Below are positions 1-40,630 of a DNA stretch of 40,630 bases, piece by piece. Numbering within the stretch: the stretch's first letter is position 1; every line of letters begins with the position of its first letter. Below the pieces are notes generated by a model that was not told the DNA's origin, made no database searches, and saw only the letters and a program-made list of their open reading frames with translations. Position numbers and translations under genes: made by a program. Origin of the DNA: a virus; the IMG/VR virus record IMGVR_UViG_3300045988_173266. One strand, given 5' to 3'.

Positions 1-119
1 GTTATAATATCAATCAATAGGGGCGTTTTTCTTATGATTTTTCGTGGTGTTTTACAACTTTCAAAAAAATTTTCAAAAAATTTCTAAAAATTACTGAAAA
101 ACGATTGACAAATCACAAA
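1..119. repeat. Terminal direct repeat copy 1, identical to 40512..40630; marks circular closure or terminal redundancy of a 40,511-bp unit
   Basis: Base-by-base comparison: 1..119 equals 40512..40630 with no mismatch. Confidence 0.95.
61..104 (+). promoter_or_regulatory. Four phased A-tracts (about 11-bp spacing) directly upstream of a -35 box; intrinsic bend or UP-element-like region
   Basis: A7 at 63-69, A6 at 75-80, A5 at 86-90, A5 at 97-101, each preceded by T-rich bases. Confidence 0.6.
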
Positions 120-5848: not shown

Positions 5849-7427
5849 ATGGGAAACACAATGAGAGATATGGGATTGCAGCGCTCGATATTCGACGGTG
5901 TAATACCTCTCAAAATTACGAAGCCGATACGACTTATAGAACTTTTTGCGGGAATCGGGGCGCAAGCGAAAGCACTTGAAAATCTCGGCGTAAACTTTGA
6001 GCATTATCGGATATGCGAGTTTGATAAGTACGCGGTTGCAAGTTATAACGCAGTTCACGGAACAAGTTTTACAACGAGCGATATTACTCAAATTCACTCC
6101 GAAGACCTTGGTATTGTCGAGACCGATAAGTATGAATACATAATGACATACTCGTTTCCTTGCACCGACCTTTCAAAGGCAGGTAAACAACAAGGAATGA
6201 GTCGAGAAAGCGGAACGCGTAGCGGTTTGTTGTGGGAAGTGGAAAGGCTACTTATTGAAATTACGAAGAAGGGGGGGGCGATTGCCTCAAATTCTTTTAA
6301 TGGAAAACGTGCCTGATGTACTTTCCGAGAAGAATCGCAAGGACTTCTTTTCGTGGTGTGAATTTCTCGAATCATTAGGATATACAAGTAAATACGCAAT
6401 ACTTAACGCGAAAGACTTCGGCGTTCCACAAAATCGAGAAAGATGTTTTATGTTAAGTTGGCTCGGAGAAGATTACTATTACGATTTTCCGAATAAACAA
6501 CCGCTTGCAGTTAGGTTGAAAGATGTTTTAGAACCTTCGGTTGATGAAAAGTATTATTTATCCGAAAAGACCATTAAATACTTTATCCAACATACGCAAG
6601 AAAGCATTGAGAAAGGGAATGGATTTCGCTTTGAACCCACAGACGGAAACGTTGTTGGGAAAACTATTACAACGAGAGCCGGAAGTAGAATGGACGACAA
6701 TTTTATCAAGTGTGAACATATCGCCCAACTTGAAGGCGATTTTGAAATGGCTAATAGGGTTTATTCCCCGGAAGGTCTGTGTCCGACGATACGGACAATG
6801 CAGGGTGGCGGATTAGAACCGAAAATTCTCGAAGATTTTTATAAGTCTCGGCAGCCGAGAGAATATAAGGAAGTTGCGCCGACTTTGCGTAGTGAAAGAG
6901 AAGGATTAAAAGTAATTGAGCCTATGGCATTAGACGAGCAAAACGGTTATCTTCGGAAAGACGGAATAGTCGGAACGCTGACAACCGACGGAAGCAGTCC
7001 GAAGCATAATAATCGGGTTGTAGAGCCGATAGTATGGGACGGGTTCAATCAATCCATAAGGAAGGATAGTTCGTGCGTAGGCACACTTACAAGAAACTGT
7101 GGGGCAGACTTAAAGCGAAACGGTCAAGGAATTATAGAAACAACAAAACAGTATAGCCGACCACACGGCTTTAATAAGGGCGGAGTAAACGAAAGTGAAG
7201 TTTTCCCCGCGGTAAGATGTTCTTCAACCGAAGACGGGAATAATGGAATTATAGACGGAATCCGCGTTCGGAAACTCACGCCAAAAGAGTGTTGGAGACT
7301 TATGGGTTTTGACGATGAAAGTTTTTCTCGTGCAAAGAAGAGAGTGAGTAATTCTCAACTTTACAAACAAGCGGGAAATTCAATCGTTGTCGATGTCCTT
7401 ATGGCAATATTCAAAAATTTATTTTAG
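5849..7427 (+). pseudogene. DNA (cytosine-5) methyltransferase interrupted by a frameshift in a G8 tract (ORFs 5849..6316 and 6255..7427)
   Basis: Motif I LFAGIGA and motif IV SFPCTDLS are in ORF1. Motif VI LLMENVP, VIII QNRERCF and X GNSIVVDVL are in ORF2. Removing one G from 6271-6278 reads ...EITKKGGRLPQILLMENVPDV in one frame. Confidence 0.85.
6271..6278 (+). repeat. G8 homopolymer at the methyltransferase frameshift point
   Basis: gaagaaGGGGGGGGcgatt read directly. Confidence 0.95.
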
Positions 7428-10570: not shown

Positions 10571-10645
10571 CGCGGAGTGGAGAAGCAGAATCTCGCTTGT
10601 CTCATAAACAAGAGGTCGGCGGTGCAATTCCGTCCTCCGCAACCA
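10571..10645 (+). tRNA. tRNA-Met (anticodon CAT), initiator-like, CCA encoded
   Basis: Hand-folded cloverleaf: acceptor CGCGGAG/CTCCGCA with a C1-A72 mismatch; D stem GAGA/TCTC (A11-T24); anticodon arm CTTGT-CTCATAA-ACAAG; T arm GGCGG-TGCAATT-CCGTC. Layout parallels E. coli tRNA-fMet. The D loop lacks GG and the T loop is non-canonical. Confidence 0.65.
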
Positions 10646-10646
10646 T

Positions 10647-10721
10647 AGCAGAGTAGCCAAAAGGAATGGCGAACGGCTTTGACCCGTTTATATGTTAGTT
10701 CGAGTCTAACCTCTGCTGCCA
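10647..10721 (+). tRNA. tRNA-Gln (anticodon TTG), CCA encoded
   Basis: Acceptor AGCAGAG/CTCTGCT; D arm GCCA-AAAGGAA-TGGC; anticodon arm AACGG-CTTTGAC-CCGTT; T arm GTTAG-TTCGAGT-CTAAC; discriminator G then CCA. Confidence 0.85.
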
Positions 10722-23200: not shown

Positions 23201-24301
23201 ATGCTTTTAGAAAAAACAAAAATTTACGGAGTGGACGGCGTAGGACAATCCTCGCCAACTCTTACGAGAACAGATTCGGCGGTGGGGTTAGGCTACACGG
23301 TCGGTCAAAGCGAAATTAAGAGCGACTTTGATAGATGTTACCCTTGGTGCGAGATGAAAGAAGTTACGGACAAGTTCGGAAACGTTTTCATTCGTGTGCC
23401 AAAGTTCTATACGAAAATCACAAAGAATACGAACGGAACTTATAAACATCAAATATCGGGTTGTAGGTACGACGGATTCGGAACTTTGTTCGTAGACGGC
23501 AAAGGAAACGAACTCGACTACGTTCTTATCGGCAAGTACGAAGGGAGTTATGACTCTACAAACTCTCGAATGATGTCGAAGAGCGGACAAACGGTTAAAG
23601 TTTCTATTACACTTCCGAATTATCGGACGGCTTGTAAGGCGGTGGGAGCGGGTTATCAGCAGTATGATTTTTTAATCGACGCTATCATTAAAGAATTGTT
23701 TATGATTGAGTTTGCAACCACGAACTCTCAATCAATTATGCAAGGATTTACAAACGGCGAGAATACTGCCGCTCTTATAACGGGGCATACCGACAATATC
23801 AAAACTCCTTCGGGTTCGTATAATAATAACCACGACCTTGAAACCGACCCTTGGACGGACGCTACTTGTAATACGGACGGCAAACACGCTTGCAAGTATA
23901 GAGGAATCGAAAATCCTTGGGGTAATACTTGGACTTGGTGCGACGGGATAAACTTCAAAGGCAAGAAAGTTTACGTTTGTGAATCCCCGGAAGATTATGC
24001 TTCCGATAAATACGACGCTCCATATTCGTATATGGGAGACAGAAAAGAAGGCGAGGGGTATACGAAAGTTATTACTCCGTTTGACAAAAATCCGCTGCTT
24101 GGATTTACGACGGAGACGGGTGCAGGGAGTACGACTTATTATTCCGATTACTACTATTACAACGCAAACGGTACCGTGCTGCTTTGCGGTGGGTATTGGC
24201 GCAACGGTGTCAATGCCGGTTTGTGGTTTTGGGATGGTAGCCGTTCTTCGTCCCACGCCTACGGCAGCATCGGCGGTCGCCTTTGTTATAAACCTCTTTA
24301 A
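23201..24301 (+). CDS. DGR variable protein: tail-fibre tip with C-type-lectin / FGE-sulfatase-like fold
   Basis: C-terminus CGGYWRNGVNAGLWFWDGSRSSSHAYGSIGGRLCYKPL overlaps the VR, 17 nt before the stop. Sits in the fibre gene block. Confidence 0.85.
   Translation: MLLEKTKIYGVDGVGQSSPTLTRTDSAVGLGYTVGQSEIKSDFDRCYPWCEMKEVTDKFGNVFIRVPKFYTKITKNTNGTYKHQISGCRYDGFGTLFVDGKGNELDYVLIGKYEGSYDSTNSRMMSKSGQTVKVSITLPNYRTACKAVGAGYQQYDFLIDAIIKELFMIEFATTNSQSIMQGFTNGENTAALITGHTDNIKTPSGSYNNNHDLETDPWTDATCNTDGKHACKYRGIENPWGNTWTWCDGINFKGKKVYVCESPEDYASDKYDAPYSYMGDRKEGEGYTKVITPFDKNPLLGFTTETGAGSTTYYSDYYYYNANGTVLLCGGYWRNGVNAGLWFWDGSRSSSHAYGSIGGRLCYKPL
24174..24284 (+). repeat. DGR variable repeat (VR)
   Basis: 111 bp aligning without gaps to 24365..24475 (offset 191). 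In 24205..24284, all 10 mismatches lie opposite TR adenines. Confidence 0.9.
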
Positions 24302-24312
24302 GAGAGGGATTA

Positions 24313-24334
24313 AAAGGGAGATACTTCTCCCTTT
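24313..24334 (+). promoter_or_regulatory. 9-bp stem / 4-nt loop hairpin downstream of VR (candidate DGR target-recognition cruciform, or a weak terminator)
   Basis: AAAGGGAGA-TACT-TCTCCCTTT, perfect stem. Confidence 0.5.
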
Positions 24335-24364
24335 GGACTAAAAATATAGGGTAGCGTGTGCCGC

Positions 24365-24475
24365 CCGTGCTGAGTTGCGGTGGGCTTTGGAACTGCGGTG
24401 TCAATGCCGGTTTGTGGAATTGGAATGGTAACAATTCTTCGTCCAACGCCAACGGCAACATCGGCGGTCGCATTT
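24365..24475 (+). repeat. DGR template repeat (TR), non-coding
   Basis: AAY-rich when read in the VR frame (W-N-W-N-G-N-N-S-S-S-N-A-N-G-N-I). Lies between the target gene and the RT. The GC-rich catcggcggtcgc 3' element is shared with VR. Confidence 0.9.
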
Positions 24476-24590
24476 TAATCAAACATTTATTCATTGCACA
24501 CGCAATCCTTGCCCCTTGGCAAAAAATAATCCGAAAAGAGGACGGTTTAGTAGGTTTTTCTCGAAAATCCGTGAGGAGATTAAAAGGTAT

Positions 24591-25682
24591 ATGAAGAGAG
24601 TCGGCTATTTATATGAGAAGATGTGCGATTTAAGTCTTATTCGCTACGCTATAAGAAAAGCGGCGCAAGGTAAAACTTATAAGCATTACATAAGAAAAGT
24701 TTTACAAAATGAAGAGGCTTACGCTTTAAGGATTCAAGAAATGCTTGTAAACGAAAGCGTAAAATTGAGTCCGAATCGTCAAATTACAATATACGACCGC
24801 TCTTGTAGCAAGGAAAGAATTATAACAGTTCCGAAGTTCTTTCCCGACCAAATACTCCATTGGGTAGTAATGCTCGTAATTGAGCCGATAATAACGAAAG
24901 GAATGTATCGGTTTAACTGCGGAAGCGTTCCTACCCGTGGAGGTATGGAAGCCAAAAGATACGTTGAACGCGCGTTAAATGATAAGAAGATAAGATATGT
25001 GGCAAAATTAGATATTTCAAAGTTTTTTAATAGCGTAAAACCGGAGTATTTAATGGCAATGTTCAGGAACAAAATCAAAGACGAGAAAGTATTAAGACTA
25101 ATCAATGCGATTCTTGAAAACGGTGGAGATTGCCTACCTATCGGTTATTATACTTCTCAATGGTTTTCAAACTTCTTTCTCGAAGGATTCGACCACTACG
25201 TTAAGGAGGAATTGAAAATAAAAAAGTACGTTCGTTACGTTGATGATATGGTTCTCCTCGATACGAACAAAAGAAAACTCCACAAGGCTATCGCGAGAAT
25301 GGATGAGTATCTCCATAAGATAGGGTTGAAACTAAAAAGAAACTATCAAGTATGGAAGGTTGGTAGCCGACCGATTGACTTTGTTGGGTTTAGATTTTAT
25401 CAAGACAAAACGGTATTAAGGAAGAAAATCTTTTTTCGACTTTGCCGCCGAGTAAGGAATGTTAGAAAGAGCGGATATATAACCGTTCATCAAGCACAAG
25501 GGATATTGTCCTTGCTCGGCTGGCTATCGCATATAAACGCTTGGAAGTTTTACAAGGAGAAGATATATCCCTACGCTCCGAAGTCAAGACTTAAAAATAT
25601 TGTGAGTAATCACGCAAAAAAATTATTGGAGGCAATAGAAAATGAAAAGATTCAAAAAGGCACTTTGGTTGCAATCTGCTAA
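24591..25682 (+). CDS. DGR reverse transcriptase
   Basis: N-terminus MKRVGYLYEKMCDLSLIRYAIRKAAQGK. IGYYTSQ (I/LGxxxSQ DGR hallmark). Catalytic YVDD in VRYVDDMVLL. Start chosen at ATG 24591 rather than the ORF-track 24516. Confidence 0.9.
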   Translation: MKRVGYLYEKMCDLSLIRYAIRKAAQGKTYKHYIRKVLQNEEAYALRIQEMLVNESVKLSPNRQITIYDRSCSKERIITVPKFFPDQILHWVVMLVIEPIITKGMYRFNCGSVPTRGGMEAKRYVERALNDKKIRYVAKLDISKFFNSVKPEYLMAMFRNKIKDEKVLRLINAILENGGDCLPIGYYTSQWFSNFFLEGFDHYVKEELKIKKYVRYVDDMVLLDTNKRKLHKAIARMDEYLHKIGLKLKRNYQVWKVGSRPIDFVGFRFYQDKTVLRKKIFFRLCRRVRNVRKSGYITVHQAQGILSLLGWLSHINAWKFYKEKIYPYAPKSRLKNIVSNHAKKLLEAIENEKIQKGTLVAIC

Positions 25683-29770: not shown

Positions 29771-32700
29771 ATGGCATATACTCTAACTCCTGCCGAAAGA
29801 CGAGCAAGAGCGCAATCTCTCCGTGAGAATCGTGAAAACCGCAAACTTTATTATGATTATTTAGAAAAAAAAGCGGCGTTAGAGCGTGAACAACAAATTC
29901 AAAGAAATGCTGAACTGCAAGCGGAACAAGAAAAGGCGAATCAGTCTTTTCTTGTTCGAGGTTTGTCTACTGTTGGAGATATCGTTGCAAATGTTCTTAC
30001 AGGGGCGGTAAAAGGTCTTGAAGGTATCGTAGACCTCGGAATCGGTTTGGTTGGCGGTATAGGCGGAATTTTTGACGGGGATTTTCAAGAAAGAGCAAAA
30101 AACGCTATCGCTTACGATTGGACGGGCGAAACTTTCGGAAACGCTCTTCAAGAGGCGTTAAAATATTCTTATACCACTAACGGCGGTATAATTGAAAACG
30201 TAGCAAGCGGAATCGGACAAATGCTTCCGTCCGTTGTTGTTTCGATTGCAACGGCGGGAGCGGGCGCGCCCGCTGCGGTAGCACAAGCCGCCTCGCTTGC
30301 CACTTTGGGCGTTAGTGCTGCCGGTACTTCTACCGAAGAAGCGTTTCAAGAAGGTGCGGATTATTGGGCGGGTCTCGGTTACGGCACGGCTTCGGGTCTT
30401 GTAGAAGTCGGAACGGAAAAGATGTTCGGTGGGGCGACGAAGGCTCTTACCGGTGCGGGTATTCTCGACGGCGTAACAAGGTCGGTTGCCGATACGGGCA
30501 TAAAGAGAATTGCAAAGAACGCACTTGAAGAGGGTTTTGAAGAAGTCGTTTCCGAACTCGCAAATCCTGCGTTGAAATCTATCTATAAAGGCTCGGAGGC
30601 TTTCAATGATTACGGCAATTTAGATTATTGGAAAGGAGTCGGAGAGGCTGGTCTCGTCGGCTCTTTAACCGCGCTTGCGTATAGCGGTACGGTCGGTTAT
30701 GGATTATCCAAAGTCGGTGTTGGGTACGTTGGGAAAGAAGCCGATATTGCGGATTCTTTATCGGAAATTGCTACACTCAAAGAGAAAGCAAATAATCTTC
30801 AAGCAAACGGCGAACTTATCGGCGTGAACGAACAAAAGATAGCCGATACCACCAAAAAGAATTATCAAAACATCGAGAAGGTTCTTCAAGGCGTTTCGGA
30901 GGATAAACGCTCGAAACTTATTGAAAAATTCAATCTCGATAAAGCGTTCAATACTGACGGCTCTATGAGCGGTCAGTTGTCGTCGTGGTTTAATTCCGTC
31001 GGAGAATCCGCCGAAGTGTCGGACGGCTCTCAAAATGAACTTGCAAGTCTTAAAAAAGACTCGTATTCGTTTAATCTCCGAGGACAAGAACAAACTATCG
31101 CTTCCGACCTTGACGCCATATCGGAAAATCTTGCTAATAAGTATATGGCTGCCAAACAAGAGAAAGGGAATAATATTACCATTGAGCAAGCGAGAGAGCA
31201 AGTCGGTAAAGTAAAGGTATTCGACGGCGAGATGTCCGATAACGCAAAGCAAAGCCGTAATAAATTCAATAAGGCTCTCAATTATCTCAACAAGGAATCG
31301 GGGGCAAATCTCTCATTTGTTGTAACCGAAAGCAACGACGCTTTCAACGGATTAGTCATCGACGATAGGACGATGTATATCGGAGAAGACCAATTTGAAA
31401 AAGGAACGTGGGCGGAAACTTTGGTTCACGAATATACCCACTTATCCGAGGGGTCGGAAGAGTACGCCAAGTTGGTAGACTTCTTGTCGTCCGATAACGT
31501 TTTGGTGGACGACGGCAACGGCGGAAAGGTCGAACTTTGGAAGAAAGGGCAAGAATCTGTATTTGACAAAAATTACGGTTTCGATAGAGAGAAAATCCAA
31601 GAAATCCACGACAAAATCGCCAACGCACAAGAATTGACCGCAGATGAACAGAAATATTTTAAGGACTTTATGTCGGAAGTTGGAGCGCACGAAACGCAAT
31701 ATCTTCTCGGTAATGAAGAATTTATCGACCGAATCGTAGCGAGAGACTCGTCTTTTGCGAAAAAGTTTTTACAAAAGATTGAGAATTTGAGAAAAGCCTT
31801 TGAAAGAGTCGGAGACAAAGAAGCGAGAAAAGCCTACAAACAAATTCACGAAGCCGAGAAACTTTATTTGAAAGCGGCGGCAAAAGCGGGAGATATGAAA
31901 CTTGTAAAATTCATTCTTTCTCGTAACCCTGACCTTGAAAAAGAAATTGACGTTTCCGCCGAAATCAAGTATAATAAGAAGGCAAAATATCTCAACATAA
32001 GCAAACAAGAATATGCGATTATCAGTTCTCGCATAATGGAAGACAATTCAAGCGTTATGGCGAAAGGTGGAGAGATTGCAAGATACAACACCGCAAGAAG
32101 CGCGAATTACTTCTATGTATATGAAAACTTTTCCGAAGGGAACTTTGGTGTATTAAAGCAAATCGCTTTAACCGATGATAAAATAAAATACATAAACGCT
32201 ATCGAAGCGAAAATAGGAGAATCAAATGGAGAATCAGTTATCCGAAGCACAAGCGAACTTAATAGAGTGCTTGAAGTTCTTAAAAATAAGTCAAGAAACG
32301 ATAGTCGGAATAATGCTTATGATTCCGAAAGACGAGCAGATAGCAGAAATGGCGAATTATCTATCGGACAATCCGAAAGCAAGCGAATCGGAAATACTGA
32401 AAAAGACGACGGAAATAAGAGAGTAAAATATTCTCTTAAAATCGGAAACGAAAACTTAACCGTAGACGGCGAAGAAAGAAAAAATCTTGTTGCACTTCAT
32501 AATCTCTCCGAGGAAAAACTTATGAAAGTTTTGGAACTCGGAGGGTTTCCTATGCCTTCGATTGCTATAACTCGTGCAGATTTAGGACACGAACAATTCG
32601 GAGATATTACGGTTATATTCGGTAGGGAGACGATAGACCCGAAAGCCGATTCAAGAAATAAGGTTTATTCGAGAGACGGATATACTCCAACCGTACCGAA

Positions 32701-35700
32701 AATAGACTACAAAGTCAATGAAAAAGTATTATCGAAAATATCGAAGAAATACTACGAACTCTCCAAGAAATTTGGTTATGATACGACTCGCCCGTTGTAT
32801 AAGTATGTAAACGATATGGAGAGGGTGTTAGAGGATAATGCGGGAGAGTTCGCAACAATCTCGCAAGTTTACGATGACACCGATATTATGCAATTATATC
32901 TCCTCGATTCGGGGAAGGAGAAAATTCAACCCGTCTATAAGGAAATAACGGAATCCTTACCAAAAGAACGGGTTGAATATCTAAACTCTTTAATCAATCA
33001 TTTAGGGAAAGAAGCCGTTTTGGAGATTACGCCGAAAGACGGGGAATCTCTATTTACACATAGGCACAATTACGCTGAAAAATATCGAGATAAAATTGCA
33101 GAGTTTTTGGTTGACGGGAAAATTTATAAGAATACGAGCGAAGTTTTTGAAGATTTTAAGGATATCGACCTTTTAAGGCTTGTAATCTCCGCGCGGAATT
33201 TTATCAATAATGGTGCAACGACTACAAAAAGCGAATTTGATTCTTCGGCTACGAATAAGGCTATTCGTGAAGCGACTCCGCAAAAAGAATATCACGCGTG
33301 GGTAGATTCTTTATTTGAGGGGATTCAAGAAAAAACGGGTATAAGAAACGATAAGGATATTTTTACTCCGTCCGGGAATAGGCGTAGTTTTGAAGCAACG
33401 CACGACAGTTATACTCTTGATAATATTATTAAAGCGATGAAACGCGCGCCGATAAAAGGCGACGGAGGTTTTGTTGGGTTAAACGTTAATGCTTTGGCTG
33501 CCAAATTGTCAAGAGAGTTCAAAAGCGTTGCGGAAATTCGTAAAAACGCCGATTCGCTTAAAACATTTAACCAAGAGATTCAAAACAATTTTATAGATAC
33601 TGCAAGGGAAATGATAAGTGAAATCGAACGCCTTTTCGTCCCGCAAGCGGACAATAGTATACAAAGTTGGACAATGCTCGACGGAGCGTCTACGCTTATC
33701 GGAGAAATTGCTGATAACGGCTTTACCACCGAAAAGCAAATAGCCGACTATATGGCGCGAGAATATAAGAATACTTCTTACAGATACTCGAAAGAAGTAG
33801 GCGATAAAATCCTTGCGTTATTCGATTATGTTCGTCAAATGACGGATACGGATTATTTTGAATCAAAGCCTCGTAGGGCAGTAGAGTTTAAGGAAATCCG
33901 CGATGTGCTTATTCCGGAAAATGCGAGCGAAAAACTTATCAAGGCTCTTGATGAACAAGGAATTGAACATATTACTTATACAGAAAAAAATACTCGTTCG
34001 GATATTATCAATAAACTCGATAATATTAGATTCTCTCTAAAAGAGGACTCCGACGGCAGAAAACTTTCGGAAGGGCAAAAGGAATACTTCAAAAATAGCA
34101 AGGTTATTGATGAAGACGGCAACTTAATGGTTGTATATCACGGTACGCCGAAGCCGAATTTTTCAGTTTTCAAACTTGGAGACGGTGCTTTGGGTAATGG
34201 TATATACTTTGCCGAGAGCAAAGAATACTCAAAAGGGTTTTCTTTTGGTTCAAATCCGTATGAAGTATATTTGAATATTACAAATCCATACGAAGTAAAC
34301 TACCCTATCAGCGACAGTATAACAGAGAAACTTATTGCAAAAGGTTATGACGGAATACATCATAAGCAGAACGGCTTTTGGGTAGCCTTTTCCCCGGAAC
34401 AAATAAAACTTGTAGATAATCTCACTCCTACCAAGAATGAAGATATTCGTTTTGACTTAAAGGAAGACGATTTATCTAAAAAGTATCGTTACGAATTATC
34501 GGACGGGCAAATCAAAAAACTCATTGCGGATAAAACGATGAGAAAGGTATACTCGAAAGTTGAGTCCGAAAAGATAATCAATACAATTCTTTCCGAATCT
34601 CTCGGTGTGGGCGAGAAATACGGTTCGCTTACGGGTAGGGCAAAATCGGAAGTTATCGAAATGCTTTGGCGCGGACTTAATACTGCCGAACCGGGCAAGC
34701 AGATGAAAGTTGCTCTCGATGTGGCGGAATACATAATACAAAATTCCGTTTTGGAAAACCTTTACGAAGATTCCGAAAACTCGATTTACATTGATACGAT
34801 AAATGCCTTAAAGCCTTATCTTCATTCGCTTGACCTTTCCGCATTGAAAGGCGAGATAAAATATAAGTTCGACAATGATAATAGTGCATATTTGTTGTGG
34901 GGCAAAAGAAAGGGCGAAAGAGGCTTAACCGCCGACCAAGTTAAAATGGAACTCGGCGAGCGTGGATTCTTTATCGACTCGGATAATGAAGCGGATATAT
35001 TCTTCAGTATGGATAGCGCGTATCGTGAAGCGGTTTCCGCAATGAAGAAAAAGAGCAAAGAATTGCTTTCGTCGGCTCTTTCCGGAGAAGAGAGGGAAAC
35101 TCTTAAAAACAAAATTGCGAGAGAAGTTCTGCTTGCTTTCGATAAAAACGGCAAGCCCTCGAAATTCTCGAAGATACTCGAACAGTACCATAAAGAAGCG
35201 TTGACGTGGAAAAGGCTTTATTACGACGAGCGCACAAGGAACACCGTCATCAATCGTCTTCTCGATAAAGTTCAGAAAATCAAAGAATGGAAGTCGGGAA
35301 TATTCCTTAATGCTTCACAATATAATGCGGATATTTTCAAAAAATCTATCGATAAATTGGCGAATATCAAATTCCGTGGCGACCTGAATCAGAGCGGCAC
35401 GAGAGATATTATTGCGGGGCTTAAAGAGTGGTATTCGCAAAAAAATTCGATTCTTAATGACGTGTACGATTCGGATATTGCGGAAATGCTCGATGATATC
35501 GCGACGGGCGAGGGGAAACTTACCACCCAGGAACTCCGAAATCTCTCGAACGTGGTAGACCATTTTAAACATTTCGTAGAAACTTATAACAAGGTCTATC
35601 GTAACGGAAAGTATGTAGAGGCTCAACCCATTGCGGAAAAATATGTTTCCGTGATGAAACGGAATAAGTCGGTGACAGTCGGTTGGCTTAAAAAATATTT

Positions 35701-38389
35701 TGAAAAGTATCTCACGACGTTCGGCGACCCGATGACGGTTGCGCGATATTTCGATAAATACGAAAACGGATTTTATTCGGAGATGTTGGCGACCTTGCGT
35801 GAAAGCGCGACTAACGCTCAAATCGACGAGATGAATATCCGCGAGCCTATCGAGGACTTCATTAAAAAGAATAAGAAATACTTTAAAGAAGCCGAGAAAA
35901 AGACCGTAAAATACCAAGGGCAAGATATTCCGTTATTGCAAGCGATATATATTTATATGGCGATGAACGACGCGGACACTATTCCGTCGTTTGCAAAGTC
36001 GGGTTTTGTCTTTAACGACGGGGATTCGGATATAAGAATTGACGGTTTCGCAAAAAATGAAGACATTGAAGTTGCGGAAATGCAGGCAATGGCAAAGGAA
36101 ATACAATCTTCGCTCGAAAGTCAGTTTTCTGCGGCGGATAAAGAATATATCGGAATCGCAAGAAAAATCTTTAACGAGGTTTGCAGGCAGAAATATATTG
36201 ACACGAGCAACAACCTTAAAGGTTATGCCAATGTAAAAGAGGGCGATTATGTTCCTATCCGTAGGGCGAACATCGCTAAAAATATTGATACAAGCAATGT
36301 TGAATACGAGGTCAAAAGCGCGAGCAACCCTTCTTTCACAAAGGACAGAGTAAAAGGCGCAAAAGGCGAACTCCGTATAGACGGAATAGATACGGTGGTA
36401 GACAGGCATATCCGCGCGATTGCTTTATATGCCAATCTTGCTCCCGCGCTTGAAGAGTATAACAGACTATTCAACCTGAATACGGAAGAAGACAATAATA
36501 AACCCGTCAGCGTGGCTACCGAAAGCCGTAACGTGTGGGCGCAAGGCGACGAATATTTCAAGAAACTCATAAACGATATTAAGGGAATCCCCGCCGCAAA
36601 AGGCGACGGAATCAAGGCTATGGCGTTTATAAGAAGCGGCTATGCAAAGTTCCAACTCGGCGCAAATCCGAAAGTGTGGGTAACGCAGTTATCGTCGTTC
36701 TTCGCTTCGGGAAGTATTTTGGATTACACTTCTATCGTCAAAGGTATCGGAATAAAAACAAACGACGTTGACACCTACTGCGAACTTGCAAAATTGCGTA
36801 ATAACGATAATACCGCCGCTATGGCGCAAGGCGTTCTCGAAAAGGTAGATAAGGTCGGCAACGTGCTTATGAAGCCTATCGGAACGGTCGATAGATTCGT
36901 TATTGAAAAACTTTTCGGCGCGTGTCAGGTACAGGTTCAAAAGGACTACGGCTTGAAAATCGGTACGGAGGAGAATAAGGTCAAAGCGGGCGAACTGCTG
37001 AAACGCGTAATTCTCGAAACGCAACAGAATTCTATGGCTACGGAAAGGTCTTCGGCTATGCGTTCGGGTAGCGAGTTTATGAGAACGATAACGATGTTTT
37101 CCGCCGACTCAATGAAGGTCATAGGAAGAGTTGTAGATTCTATCGGAGAATTAAGCGCGTTAAAATCAAAGAAAAAAATTCTTACCGACGCAAACGAAAT
37201 CGCGAACATAAATAAACAGATAGAGCAGGCGACAAAGAAAGTTGCGAAATCCACGACTTCGCTTATAACTTCGGCTGTGTTTATGGCTCTCGTGGCGCAG
37301 TTGTTCAGAACACTTTACAACAAAGACGATGAAGACGATAATGTGGTCGCAAATATGACGACCGACGCTATCGGAAACCTTTTCGGCGGCTTACCGATTT
37401 TCAAGGATATTTATTCTCGCCTTGTAGAAGGATATGATATTGACGGTTACGCATATTCTGCGATAAACGATATGCTTGATAGCGCGGAAAACATTTTCAA
37501 GATGTGCGGGAACATTGTTTCCGGCGAGGCAACTTCGCAAGAGGTTGCAAAAAATATCAAGAATATGGTTTATGCGGCGGGGCAAATTTTCGGGCTGCCG
37601 GCACGAAATGTTTATAATGTCGCCTACGGATTAACGAAAAGAGTAAGTCTGTCTACCGCATACAAAATCGACACGGCTTTCTACAATAAGAAGTATACTT
37701 CCGATTTGAACAAGGCTATCGCGAGTGGCGATGACGATATGATTGCAACAATCGTCGAACTTATGACGAATGAACGGGTCGGGAGCATAGGCGATTCCGC
37801 CGTAAGTCAGGAACTCAATTCTCTTGTTACGAAAGGTTATGACGTAATCCCGCGAAGCGTCGGAAAAGAGATAACCTATAACGGCGAAGAAATAAGTTTA
37901 ACAAGCGGTCAGAGAAAACAGTTCAAGGAAGTATATTCTGTGGCGAATAAGGCGGTTGCAAGCCTTGTAAAATTATCTCAATACAAATCCGCGACCGACG
38001 ATGTAAAAGCAAAAGCGATTAAGTATATTTACAACGTATATTACAATCTTGCTCTCCAAGACTTGCTTGGAGAAGACCTTGAAACGAAAACAGTCTTATT
38101 CGCGGAAGCAATCGACGTAGAGAAACTCGCTATCATTGTCGCGACGGCTAATTCCTTAACCGCCGACCTCGATAAGAAAGGAAATGCGATAAGCGGAACT
38201 CGTAAGAGGAAAATTCAAGCCTATGTAAATTCGCTTAAACTTTCCGCCGCTCAAAAGTATATGGTTATGGGCTATCTCGGATTCAGTAATCTGAATGGCG
38301 AATCGCAAGTCAAAGCGTACATCAACCGCCTCAATCTCACGAAGTCAGAGAAAGAGAAACTTCTCAAATATAGCGGGTACGGGAAATGA
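29771..38389 (+). CDS. Giant (2872 aa) polyvalent-type virion protein with Gly/Ala-rich hydrophobic N-terminal region, zincin-like HExxH domain and ART-like domain
   Basis: Uninterrupted frame. HEYTH at nt 31427..31441 (aa 553-557). VVYHGTPKPNF...GNGIYFAESKEY...YEVYLNITNPYEV around nt 34100..34420. Hydrophobic AGAGAPAAVAQAASLATLGVSAAG and a C-terminal TM. Confidence 0.8.
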   Translation: MAYTLTPAERRARAQSLRENRENRKLYYDYLEKKAALEREQQIQRNAELQAEQEKANQSFLVRGLSTVGDIVANVLTGAVKGLEGIVDLGIGLVGGIGGIFDGDFQERAKNAIAYDWTGETFGNALQEALKYSYTTNGGIIENVASGIGQMLPSVVVSIATAGAGAPAAVAQAASLATLGVSAAGTSTEEAFQEGADYWAGLGYGTASGLVEVGTEKMFGGATKALTGAGILDGVTRSVADTGIKRIAKNALEEGFEEVVSELANPALKSIYKGSEAFNDYGNLDYWKGVGEAGLVGSLTALAYSGTVGYGLSKVGVGYVGKEADIADSLSEIATLKEKANNLQANGELIGVNEQKIADTTKKNYQNIEKVLQGVSEDKRSKLIEKFNLDKAFNTDGSMSGQLSSWFNSVGESAEVSDGSQNELASLKKDSYSFNLRGQEQTIASDLDAISENLANKYMAAKQEKGNNITIEQAREQVGKVKVFDGEMSDNAKQSRNKFNKALNYLNKESGANLSFVVTESNDAFNGLVIDDRTMYIGEDQFEKGTWAETLVHEYTHLSEGSEEYAKLVDFLSSDNVLVDDGNGGKVELWKKGQESVFDKNYGFDREKIQEIHDKIANAQELTADEQKYFKDFMSEVGAHETQYLLGNEEFIDRIVARDSSFAKKFLQKIENLRKAFERVGDKEARKAYKQIHEAEKLYLKAAAKAGDMKLVKFILSRNPDLEKEIDVSAEIKYNKKAKYLNISKQEYAIISSRIMEDNSSVMAKGGEIARYNTARSANYFYVYENFSEGNFGVLKQIALTDDKIKYINAIEAKIGESNGESVIRSTSELNRVLEVLKNKSRNDSRNNAYDSERRADSRNGELSIGQSESKRIGNTEKDDGNKRVKYSLKIGNENLTVDGEERKNLVALHNLSEEKLMKVLELGGFPMPSIAITRADLGHEQFGDITVIFGRETIDPKADSRNKVYSRDGYTPTVPKIDYKVNEKVLSKISKKYYELSKKFGYDTTRPLYKYVNDMERVLEDNAGEFATISQVYDDTDIMQLYLLDSGKEKIQPVYKEITESLPKERVEYLNSLINHLGKEAVLEITPKDGESLFTHRHNYAEKYRDKIAEFLVDGKIYKNTSEVFEDFKDIDLLRLVISARNFINNGATTTKSEFDSSATNKAIREATPQKEYHAWVDSLFEGIQEKTGIRNDKDIFTPSGNRRSFEATHDSYTLDNIIKAMKRAPIKGDGGFVGLNVNALAAKLSREFKSVAEIRKNADSLKTFNQEIQNNFIDTAREMISEIERLFVPQADNSIQSWTMLDGASTLIGEIADNGFTTEKQIADYMAREYKNTSYRYSKEVGDKILALFDYVRQMTDTDYFESKPRRAVEFKEIRDVLIPENASEKLIKALDEQGIEHITYTEKNTRSDIINKLDNIRFSLKEDSDGRKLSEGQKEYFKNSKVIDEDGNLMVVYHGTPKPNFSVFKLGDGALGNGIYFAESKEYSKGFSFGSNPYEVYLNITNPYEVNYPISDSITEKLIAKGYDGIHHKQNGFWVAFSPEQIKLVDNLTPTKNEDIRFDLKEDDLSKKYRYELSDGQIKKLIADKTMRKVYSKVESEKIINTILSESLGVGEKYGSLTGRAKSEVIEMLWRGLNTAEPGKQMKVALDVAEYIIQNSVLENLYEDSENSIYIDTINALKPYLHSLDLSALKGEIKYKFDNDNSAYLLWGKRKGERGLTADQVKMELGERGFFIDSDNEADIFFSMDSAYREAVSAMKKKSKELLSSALSGEERETLKNKIAREVLLAFDKNGKPSKFSKILEQYHKEALTWKRLYYDERTRNTVINRLLDKVQKIKEWKSGIFLNASQYNADIFKKSIDKLANIKFRGDLNQSGTRDIIAGLKEWYSQKNSILNDVYDSDIAEMLDDIATGEGKLTTQELRNLSNVVDHFKHFVETYNKVYRNGKYVEAQPIAEKYVSVMKRNKSVTVGWLKKYFEKYLTTFGDPMTVARYFDKYENGFYSEMLATLRESATNAQIDEMNIREPIEDFIKKNKKYFKEAEKKTVKYQGQDIPLLQAIYIYMAMNDADTIPSFAKSGFVFNDGDSDIRIDGFAKNEDIEVAEMQAMAKEIQSSLESQFSAADKEYIGIARKIFNEVCRQKYIDTSNNLKGYANVKEGDYVPIRRANIAKNIDTSNVEYEVKSASNPSFTKDRVKGAKGELRIDGIDTVVDRHIRAIALYANLAPALEEYNRLFNLNTEEDNNKPVSVATESRNVWAQGDEYFKKLINDIKGIPAAKGDGIKAMAFIRSGYAKFQLGANPKVWVTQLSSFFASGSILDYTSIVKGIGIKTNDVDTYCELAKLRNNDNTAAMAQGVLEKVDKVGNVLMKPIGTVDRFVIEKLFGACQVQVQKDYGLKIGTEENKVKAGELLKRVILETQQNSMATERSSAMRSGSEFMRTITMFSADSMKVIGRVVDSIGELSALKSKKKILTDANEIANINKQIEQATKKVAKSTTSLITSAVFMALVAQLFRTLYNKDDEDDNVVANMTTDAIGNLFGGLPIFKDIYSRLVEGYDIDGYAYSAINDMLDSAENIFKMCGNIVSGEATSQEVAKNIKNMVYAAGQIFGLPARNVYNVAYGLTKRVSLSTAYKIDTAFYNKKYTSDLNKAIASGDDDMIATIVELMTNERVGSIGDSAVSQELNSLVTKGYDVIPRSVGKEITYNGEEISLTSGQRKQFKEVYSVANKAVASLVKLSQYKSATDDVKAKAIKYIYNVYYNLALQDLLGEDLETKTVLFAEAIDVEKLAIIVATANSLTADLDKKGNAISGTRKRKIQAYVNSLKLSAAQKYMVMGYLGFSNLNGESQVKAYINRLNLTKSEKEKLLKYSGYGK
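32226..32426 (+). CDS. Candidate overprinted 66-aa ORF in an alternative frame inside the giant gene
   Basis: AGGAGA at 32215-20, 5 nt before ATG 32226. The translation looks like a folded helical protein, while the main frame is S/R/N/D low complexity over the same nucleotides. Confidence 0.3.
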   Translation: MENQLSEAQANLIECLKFLKISQETIVGIMLMIPKDEQIAEMANYLSDNPKASESEILKKTTEIRE

Positions 38390-39395: not shown

Positions 39396-40421
39396 ATGAA
39401 AGGTATGAGATTTACGGCAAAAGAAAAAGAACGCGCTCTCAAAATGTGGCTAAATGAAAGCACCGACATAACGTTAGTTGCACATCGAATGAAGTGTACC
39501 GAGAGAACTCTTTGGCATTGGAAATCTCTCTATGACGGAACGCTTGCGAGTCTTGAAAATAAGTCATCGAGACCGCATACGCCTAATCCGAAATCTCACA
39601 CTAAAAAAGAAATTGAAAATATTAAAAAAATTTTTAATGAACACCCGGATATAAGTTACGCGGAAGCGTTCGGAAAGTTGCGAACGGATTGTGCATATTC
39701 AAGAACTTACTTCGGATTTTGGAGATTCGTCGTCAAAAGCGGAATCCGTCCGCATAAAGATGTTGTTGAAAAATATATTGAGAAACCTTATAATACGCCC
39801 GAAATGTTCGCAATCAAAATGCAAATGGACGTGAAGGTTGTTCCGAAAGAATGTAAGATAGGCGAATATAAAGACGAGAAGGACTTTCAGTATACAATAA
39901 TAGACGAGGCGACAAGAGAAAGATTTATCTATCCTTATAAAGAGCAAAGCACATACTCCACCGCTGACTTCTTAAAGAGAGCGTTTGTATATTTCGGTTA
40001 TCTTCCTGCAATAGTCCAAACGGATAACGGAACGGAATTTACTCCGCCAAAAAATGCGAAAGAAACGACGATTAACGCCGTAGATAGATTTTTGATTAAA
40101 TACGGAATTAAACATAAACTTATAAAACCGCGTACGCCGAGACACAATGGAAAGGTAGAGCGTTCTCATAGAACCGACCAAGAATGTTTTTATGACCATT
40201 TGCAATATTCTACTTACGAAGAACTGAAAGAGAAAATGGCAGAATGGCTTAATAGATATAACAATCGTCCGCACTCGTCTTTGCGGAATAGGGCAGGGAA
40301 AAGAGTTTGGTTGACTCCGCTGCAAAAGAGGGCGGAACTAATGGAAGATTATCTTAAAAGCGGTTTTAAGGACGAAAACGATAAGGAGATTAAAATCCGA
40401 TTCCTCAAAAAATCTGCTTAA
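39396..40421 (+). CDS. DDE (rve, retroviral-integrase-fold) transposase/integrase with N-terminal HTH; IS481/IS3-like
   Basis: HTH-like N-terminus. Catalytic D in MQMDVK, D in VQTDNGTEFT, E in NGKVERSHR. YNNRPHSSL tail. Confidence 0.8.
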   Translation: MKGMRFTAKEKERALKMWLNESTDITLVAHRMKCTERTLWHWKSLYDGTLASLENKSSRPHTPNPKSHTKKEIENIKKIFNEHPDISYAEAFGKLRTDCAYSRTYFGFWRFVVKSGIRPHKDVVEKYIEKPYNTPEMFAIKMQMDVKVVPKECKIGEYKDEKDFQYTIIDEATRERFIYPYKEQSTYSTADFLKRAFVYFGYLPAIVQTDNGTEFTPPKNAKETTINAVDRFLIKYGIKHKLIKPRTPRHNGKVERSHRTDQECFYDHLQYSTYEELKEKMAEWLNRYNNRPHSSLRNRAGKRVWLTPLQKRAELMEDYLKSGFKDENDKEIKIRFLKKSA

Positions 40422-40490: not shown

Positions 40491-40519
40491 TTGACTTCTT
40501 TATCGAAAAGAGTTATAAT
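40491..40519 (+). promoter_or_regulatory. Sigma70-type promoter P1 (TTGACT-17-TATAAT) spanning the repeat junction
   Basis: TTGACT at 40491-96, 17-nt spacer, TATAAT at 40514-19 (same bases as 3-8). Confidence 0.6.
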
Positions 40520-40630
40520 ATCAATCAATAGGGGCGTTTTTCTTATGATTTTTCGTGGTGTTTTACAACTTTCAAAAAAATTTTCAAAAAATTTCTAAAA
40601 ATTACTGAAAAACGATTGACAAATCACAAA
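40512..40630. repeat. Terminal direct repeat copy 2 (identical to 1..119)
   Basis: Exact identity to 1..119. Confidence 0.95.

Follow-up and report, generated by a model that had tools for sequence, protein, structure and literature searches.

A compact diversity-generating retroelement with no detected accessory gene in a gut Clostridia phage, and loss of adenines from its template repeat

INTRODUCTION

Diversity-generating retroelements (DGRs) are very common among gut phages, and the accessory protein Avd, present in about 74% of DGRs, is not universal. Architecture A, in which a template repeat (TR) is followed by the reverse transcriptase (RT) with no accessory gene, makes up 29% of curated DGRs, and one RT lineage is wholly without avd (PMC5758913). 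Faecalibacterium phages carry Avd-less DGRs with Mtd-like targets (PMC5883640), and phages of gut Firmicutes are already known to have this compact layout without Avd. In the DGR of Bordetella phage BPP-1, the spacer between TR and RT carries the RNA motif RT-10, and other motifs of the same series have been speculated to serve other DGRs (PMC5737381). Here we describe a DGR in IMG/VR virus record IMGVR_UViG_3300045988_173266, a stretch of 40,630 nt (hereafter the window, by which we mean the whole stretch analyzed, with position 1 as its first letter). We read the locus as a complete element comprising a target gene with a variable repeat (VR), a TR, a structured spacer RNA, and an RT, without an accessory gene, and assign this reading a probability of roughly 0.92. 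An earlier note, made from the sequence alone, had also proposed a DGR here, and its interpretation is supported by adenine-specific mismatches, the RT match, codon-confined variation, and the predicted fold of the target.

RESULTS AND DISCUSSION

Repeat mismatches are specific to template adenines

The 111-nt VR (24174-24284) and the 111-nt TR (24365-24475), both on the + strand, form a gap-free direct repeat that is 84% identical, with a start-to-start offset of 191 nt. The repeat finder thereby recovered the pair just as the earlier note had placed it. The VR lies inside a 366-amino-acid (aa) open reading frame (ORF), its end 17 nt short of the final base of the TAA stop codon (24299-24301), so that the distance of 17 nt given in the note is correct when counted to that base. 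Between the 366-aa ORF and the RT ORF is a gap of 289 nt, which contains the non-coding TR; the TR is kept among relatives while their VRs differ. No second VR was found elsewhere in the genome at ≥62% identity on either strand.

The repeats differ at 18 of 111 nt, and 13 of these mismatches fall at a TR adenine, 2 at G, 2 at T, and 1 at C (hypergeometric P = 3.9e-8 for adenine bias over the whole repeat). Tabulating mismatches by TR base, the check that the note had proposed, thus gives an adenine-specific pattern. It is sharpest in the 3′ part of the VR (24205-24284), in which all 10 mismatches lie at TR adenines and 10 of the 18 adenines are changed (hypergeometric P = 2.7e-8). The note had counted the same ten. 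Its count stands, and its reading of asparagine codons turned into F, D, S, R, H, Y, and S is accurate (residues 343, 345, 347, 348, 352, 354, and 356), but the tenth mismatch is not a mutagenized site: the C at 24281 opposite the A at 24472 is the same in every aligned related locus and therefore represents the fixed 3′ boundary difference between a putative initiation of mutagenic homing (IMH) sequence and its TR counterpart, IMH*.

The five non-adenine mismatches (24183, 24194, 24195, 24203, and 24204) arise because the window TR differs at five positions at which close relatives have A. When the window VR is compared with the ancestral-type TR, all 15 mismatches fall at adenines (P = 5.7e-12). 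We also considered a VR that starts at 24205 and rejected it, as seven close relatives (L002, L003, L046, and L102-L105) show all-adenine mismatches across the full 111 nt; most other relatives show them across 100 to 125 nt.

Variation among relatives is confined to templated codons

We compared the window with ∼100 related loci (given L numbers below where they must be told apart) drawn from IMG/VR, GTDB genomes, and exact-protein look-ups, so that heterogeneity is assessed across assemblies rather than among reads within one sample. These loci yielded 64 unique VR/TR pairs of ∼100 to 125 nt, in which 918 of 960 mismatches (95.6%) lie at TR adenines; in 47 of the 64 pairs, every mismatch does.

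The window target protein falls in a cluster of 111 sequences at 90% identity. We aligned 14 cluster members from other assemblies: over the first 324 residues, the columns have a mean of 1.17 residue types, and 13 columns are hypervariable, with 4 to 10 residue types each (residues 328, 332, 334, 335, 338, 343, 345, 347, 348, 352, 354, 356, and 357). These 13 columns coincide exactly with the codons that read AAY (12) or ATC (one) in the ancestral-type TR. The remaining VR codons are invariant among the 14 members, and the rest of the protein shows scattered substitutions only. Variation among near-identical copies within the VR is therefore confined to adenine-templated codons.

Eight near-identical genomes give the same picture at the nucleotide level: their VRs differ at adenine sites only, with 12 to 19 of 25 sites changed, and their TRs are conserved. 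A test for shared ancestry or patchy rewriting among these eight VRs gave a maximum of 7 shared derived states, which is not significant over 28 pairs. Because derived bases are shared between pairs at chance level, the eight VRs look like independent rewrites. A further relative, L047 in the Clostridia bacterium metagenome-assembled genome (MAG) HGM11445 (CAAGAM010000026.1), encodes a protein 100% identical to that of the window up to residue 327, at which the contig stops. The break falls one codon before the first variable codon, as would be expected if VR heterogeneity had broken the assembly.

The reverse transcriptase groups with those of DGRs

The RT ORF (24591-25682, +) encodes 363 aa and contains the motifs IGYYTSQ and YVDD, as the earlier note had reported. 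It matches Pfam RVT_1 (2.7e-14) and phrog_1423 (2.3e-90). Its best solved relative is the Bordetella phage bRT (PDB 8ub7_A; E value of 3.4e-28), in which IGSLTSQ and YMDD align to the two motifs. In the same PDB sequence search, a group II intron RT scored 6.7e-12 and retron RTs 1e-9 or weaker, so that bRT leads by 16 orders of magnitude and the expectation in the note that the RT would not group with group II or retron enzymes is borne out. A tblastn search against GenBank phages returned 144 records, the best phage RTs being those of Lactobacillus phage LBR48 (39% identity), Butyrivibrio phage Arawn (36%), and Faecalibacterium phage FP_Epona (32%), with crAss-like phages, an archaeal virus, and Bordetella phages among the further top relatives. 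These matches support placing the enzyme, by sequence, with the DGR RTs.

We weighed the possibility that this is a retron, group II intron, or defense RT standing beside a coincidental duplication of the 3′ end of a gene. What speaks for it are weak, partial matches to NCBIfam models, a collection that holds no DGR-specific RT model: 99.2 bits for group II and 71.2 bits for retron St85. These scores are far under the respective cut-offs of 300 and 235 bits, and matches to the Drt models are likewise far under theirs. Rfam reported only the RT-18 motif at the locus, with no intron domains and no retron msr/msd RNA. The adenine-only mismatch pattern (P of ∼1e-8 to 1e-12) also counts against this alternative, and hypervariation at exactly the templated codons would be unexpected for a retron, group II intron, or defense RT. 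We consider the alternative effectively refuted.

The target is a predicted C-type-lectin-fold protein

The target gene (23201-24301, +) encodes a 366-aa Mtd-like variable protein and is the last gene of the tail module. The protein matches phrog_5302, annotated “tail protein” (3.7e-64), and sequence and profile searches gave no match in Pfam, NCBIfam, or the PDB. An AlphaFold model built with 58 homologues (pLDDT of 84.8, pTM of 0.89) was most similar in Foldseek to TaqVP (5vf4; 3.9e-11, TM-score of 0.49), followed by Mtd (1yu0-1yu4; ∼3e-4) and TvpA (2y3c; 4.8e-3). The top nine PDB chains all belong to these three proteins, which are the three solved DGR variable proteins, and FGE-like enzymes come afterwards. 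The model thus supports a C-type-lectin-fold DGR variable protein with the VR in its C-terminal part, in agreement with the fold type suggested in the earlier note.

The label “tail fiber” is our inference from gene position, the PHROG annotation, and structural matches to annotated tail fibers. The target gene lies directly 3′ of a gene for a 610-aa leucine-rich-repeat protein with tail fiber PHROG matches, at the end of the structural module, and matches in BFVD are to C-terminal modules of 450- to 1,060-aa “tail collar fiber” or tail fiber proteins, with TM-scores of up to 0.89. The diversified protein could instead be another virion protein or a host-directed protein with a C-type-lectin fold. 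In favor of such a role, phage DGR targets include capsid decoration proteins (PMC5883640), and the labels available here come by annotation transfer from PHROG and BFVD for a protein with no sequence match in Pfam, NCBIfam, or the PDB. We regard this as improbable in view of the neighboring tail fiber gene, the occurrence of the same module at the C terminus of annotated tail fibers, and a size and fold that are overall like those of Mtd, the fiber-tip protein of BPP-1. A fiber-tip protein is the identity that we favor.

A structured spacer RNA and a putative IMH-like boundary complete the cassette

The spacer between TR and RT contains a structured RNA of the Rfam family RF03021, the RT-18 motif (24510-24586, +), which scores 52.2 bits against a gathering score of 41.3. 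RT-18 stands directly upstream of the RT in nine related loci; the spacer of FP_Epona carries RT-4 and that of another relative RT-17. A consensus fold of 12 spacers shows compensatory changes in 11 of 16 pairs and conserved unpaired UAGUAG and CGAAA segments. The evidence for structure is this covariation together with the covariance model match, as a single-sequence fold of TR plus spacer was uninformative (z-score of −0.13).

At the 3′ end of the VR, a GC-rich segment, CGGCGGTCGC (VR 24271-24280), is common to VR and TR and is followed by fixed divergence, with VR-specific sequence from the C at 24281. In the alignment of relatives, this divergence is alike in the family-level relatives (L001-L032 and L046). 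By analogy with BPP-1, we infer that the boundary (24271-24301, +) has an IMH-like role. Just 3′ of the target stop codon lies a hairpin (24313-24334, +) with a 9-bp stem, the 4-nt loop TACT, and no T-run, whose DNA fold has a free energy of −8.4 kcal/mol (z-score of −2.94). Relatives also have a hairpin at this position, in which a compensatory change replaces A:T by G:C, and the hairpin is found 3′ of the VR and not of the TR. A terminator scan did not call this hairpin, and promoter and terminator scans around the cassette gave results at chance level and were uninformative.

The template repeat has lost adenines

Five positions, and no others, set the window TR apart from the TRs of every close relative and outgroup, in all of which these positions are A (24374 A>G, 24385-6 AA>CT, and 24394-5 AA>TG), so that the window state is derived. 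That all five changes fall at adenine sites has a probability of 5e-4. The eroded segment (24374-24395, +) spans 22 nt, and among its changes are two doublets of neighboring bases and three transversions. No other TR position is changed, nearby non-coding sequence carries 0 to 2 changes per 100 nt, and the local background divergence is ∼1 to 3%. Given this clustering, the doublets, and the low background, one patch-wise event fits better than five point mutations. Adenines are reduced from 25 to 20 in the 104-nt TR core and from 26 to 21 over the full 111 nt. At 24195 and 24203-4, the VR still has A opposite what are now T, T, and G in the TR; these retained adenines indicate that the change in the TR postdates the last writing of that part of the VR.

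We considered an assembly chimera as the origin of the unusual TR and rejected it: only 8 nt are common to VR and TR 5′ of the changed patch, the same sequence is present in an independent k127 assembly, and a similar case occurs in the genome of a cultured isolate.

Adenine loss recurs in relatives, in which we scored it as the difference in total adenine count from a sister TR (L090 for L080, L086, and L079). The TR of L080 has lost 7 adenines, in its 5′ half, and that of L086 has lost 12; the TR of L079, a prophage of the cultured Pumilibacter muris, has lost 17 of 24 and retains 7. Smaller losses are found in L104 and L011 (2 adenines each) and in L019 and L023 (1 each). The TRs of the heavily eroded relatives have 7 to 17 adenines left versus the usual 22 to 28. 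RT ORFs are intact in the loci with eroded TRs. The VRs of L080 and L086 have the same bases as the eroded TR at the eroded sites, and they continue to differ from it at the remaining adenines; in L079, as in the window, the VR has adenines where the TR has none.

How adenines are lost can be constrained in part. One explanation invokes selection only, with TR changes tolerated at adenine sites alone; it is weakened by the clustering, by the doublets, and by the fact that these TRs lack synonymous changes. Homing of the canonical kind, starting at the 3′ boundary, is unlikely, because the patches are short and internal and the window TR keeps all 18 adenines in its 3′ 80 nt. A more likely route would be short-patch recombination, either with mutagenized cDNA or with a different VR allele. 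In synthetic DGRs in Escherichia coli, adenine is reported to be continuously erased from the TR, a behavior that the authors contrast with natural systems, and recombineering proteins drive cDNA into any homologous DNA (bioRxiv 10.64898/2026.07.21.739853). A non-exhaustive literature search found no report of natural TR erosion.

We hypothesize that, in this Avd-less lineage, the TR now and then receives short adenine-mutagenized patches from cDNA or from a VR allele, and each such event permanently removes adenines, in a one-way ratchet that narrows and then ends diversification. We place even odds on this proposal. Were it true, the window would represent an early stage, the losses in L104, L080, L086, and L079 would put relatives of the window at later stages, and the lineage would provide a natural counterpart to TR erosion, reports of which have so far come from engineered DGRs only. 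With the window TR as it now stands, another full-length firing of the element would leave Leu at residue 332 and Cys at residue 335 as fixed residues and restrict residue 328 to NGT codons.

Proposed mechanism and present activity

On the model of BPP-1, we suppose that the TR-spacer RNA would be transcribed and that the RT, guided by the RT-18-type spacer, would copy the TR into cDNA, placing random bases opposite adenines and copying accurately elsewhere. The cDNA would then replace the VR, with the GC-rich IMH-like element and the nearby hairpin potentially setting the 3′ limit. As a result, 13 codons (12 AAY and one ATC) would be rewritten in the C-terminal, predicted C-type-lectin-fold domain of the Mtd-like tail protein, presumably altering receptor binding.

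Several points weigh against this account as applied to the window. BPP-1 depends on Avd, which was not found here, and an identical mechanism can therefore not operate. A Pfam scan of ∼40 ORFs across the genome detected no Avd-like family, and a divergent Avd is possible, given the poor conservation of these proteins. Two ORFs that follow the RT, of 59 aa and 48 aa, are acidic or Cys-rich, unlike the basic Avd; neither matches a PHROG, and Pfam, for which the result covers the 59-aa ORF only, gave no match. The tail-fiber role is drawn from genomic context and annotation transfer. The exact VR allele and 366-aa protein of the window occur on at least 24 contigs of 20 to 50 kb in public assemblies, one of which, from an independent assembly, has a 6.1-kb stretch with zero differences from the window; the lineage carrying this allele thus shows no sign of ongoing diversification. 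Finally, adenines persist in the VR opposite T, T, and G of the present TR, which shows that no full rewrite of the VR has followed the change in the TR.

These last observations, together with the five adenines already lost and the far more advanced erosion in relatives, are what would be expected if the DGR lineage was once active and the window copy is now dormant or decaying, its TR losing adenines and its VR frozen. We think this possible but rather unlikely. None of the RT ORF, its catalytic motifs, the spacer RNA, the IMH-like element, or the hairpin is disrupted, and the 104-nt TR core retains 20 adenines. The many identical contigs may stem from related samples of one study; the allele is either stable and widespread or has been sampled repeatedly. 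Erosion itself does not stop activity, given that the VRs of L080 and L086 match the eroded TR at the eroded sites yet vary at the remaining adenines. Exact-pattern scans of IMG/VR and JGI metagenome contigs gave 0 matches to the eroded TR or to VRs templated by it. The lineage clearly diversifies, and the window copy, with all its parts intact, may still be functional.

The host phage and its relatives

The host is a ∼40.5-kb P22-portal-type phage or prophage from gut Clostridia. The first 119 nt of the window (1-119) are repeated exactly at 40512-40630, an assembler overlap that indicates a circular assembly of ∼40,511 bp, and a near-identical copy of the genome is embedded within a 199,758-bp contig, which indicates that the phage is temperate. 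Relatives were found in Clostridia MAGs, mostly of Christensenellaceae, and in the cultured Pumilibacter muris and P. intestinalis. No DNA-level similarity was found between the locus and GenBank phages.

All of the genome features we list are encoded on the + strand. The genome encodes a helix-turn-helix (HTH) regulator, SSB, a DnaC-like loader, and methyltransferases. Two overlapping ORFs (5849-6316 and 6255-7427) both have DNA methyltransferase family matches, the first to the N-terminal part of a C-5 cytosine methylase model and the second to a methyltransferase PHROG, and they may be a split or frameshifted methyltransferase gene. Adjacent genes for tRNA-Met (CAT) and tRNA-Gln (TTG) at 10571-10721 lie upstream of the terminase genes. 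Also encoded are terminase, the P22-type portal, the major head protein, and tail proteins of 844 aa and 610 aa, the latter with leucine-rich repeats of the BspA type; after these come the DGR cassette and then small membrane proteins. A 2,872-aa polyvalent protein (29771-38389) combines PBECR5 nuclease-like and ART-PolyVal ADP-ribosyltransferase domains, and one relative encodes a 3,154-aa version of it. At the genome end, a 341-aa protein (39396-40421) with a transposase HTH and an rve integrase core could be the phage integration enzyme or an inserted insertion sequence element.

Among the related loci, one Christensenella MAG contig (CAJUGI010000002.1) carries two DGR target loci, L083 and L084, ∼33 kb apart and with identical VR and TR, which suggests a duplicated or tandem prophage.

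Implications

The element is one more well-formed DGR in a very large known set, and what it offers is a clean natural record with 13 diversified codons. It is useful for annotation and as a candidate system for the study of Avd-independent diversification, and it links RT-18, an orphan motif in Rfam, to the spacer between TR and RT in Avd-less DGRs. The loss of TR adenines, recurring in related prophages, is its only mildly novel aspect. This repeated, adenine-specific, and patch-wise erosion bears on how templates are protected or lost in natural DGRs and on the decay of engineered ones, and the related prophages in the cultured hosts P. muris and P. intestinalis make experiments possible.

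Comparison with known systems

The BPP-1 element (mtd-avd-TR-brt) likewise has its VR at the 3′ end of the gene for a tail protein of ∼370 to 380 aa with a C-type-lectin-fold tip, adenine-specific TR/VR differences, a GC-rich boundary and hairpin 3′ of the VR, and a structured TR-RT spacer RNA, and its bRT is the best solved homologue of the window RT, with IGxxxSQ and YxDD aligned. The window element differs from it in having no detected avd gene, VR and TR starts only 191 nt apart, a spacer RNA of the RT-18 rather than the RT-10 family (PMC5737381), and a target without detectable sequence similarity to Mtd. TaqVP of Thermus aquaticus (5vf4), the best structural match to the target, is also a DGR variable protein with a C-type-lectin fold, but it is a cellular, non-phage protein with only 15 to 16% identity and a moderate TM-score.

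In the synthetic DGRs of E. coli, TR adenine loss leaves the same footprint as in the window, L104, L080, L086, and L079. The cases described here are natural prophages, in which the patch may come from cDNA or from a VR allele.

Closest in layout are the Architecture A DGRs (Wu et al. 2018), such as those of phages FP_Epona and Arawn, which likewise consist of a target, an intergenic TR, and an RT with no gene between. The RTs of FP_Epona, Arawn, and LBR48 are 32 to 39% identical to that of the window, with the LBR48 RT closest, and the published FP_Epona DGR has an Mtd-like target with no Avd found (PMC5883640). In comparison with the FP_Epona and Arawn elements, the DGR described here resides in another phage backbone, with a P22-type portal and a giant polyvalent protein, and in another host group, the Christensenellaceae and relatives, and its spacer carries RT-18 where that of FP_Epona carries RT-4.

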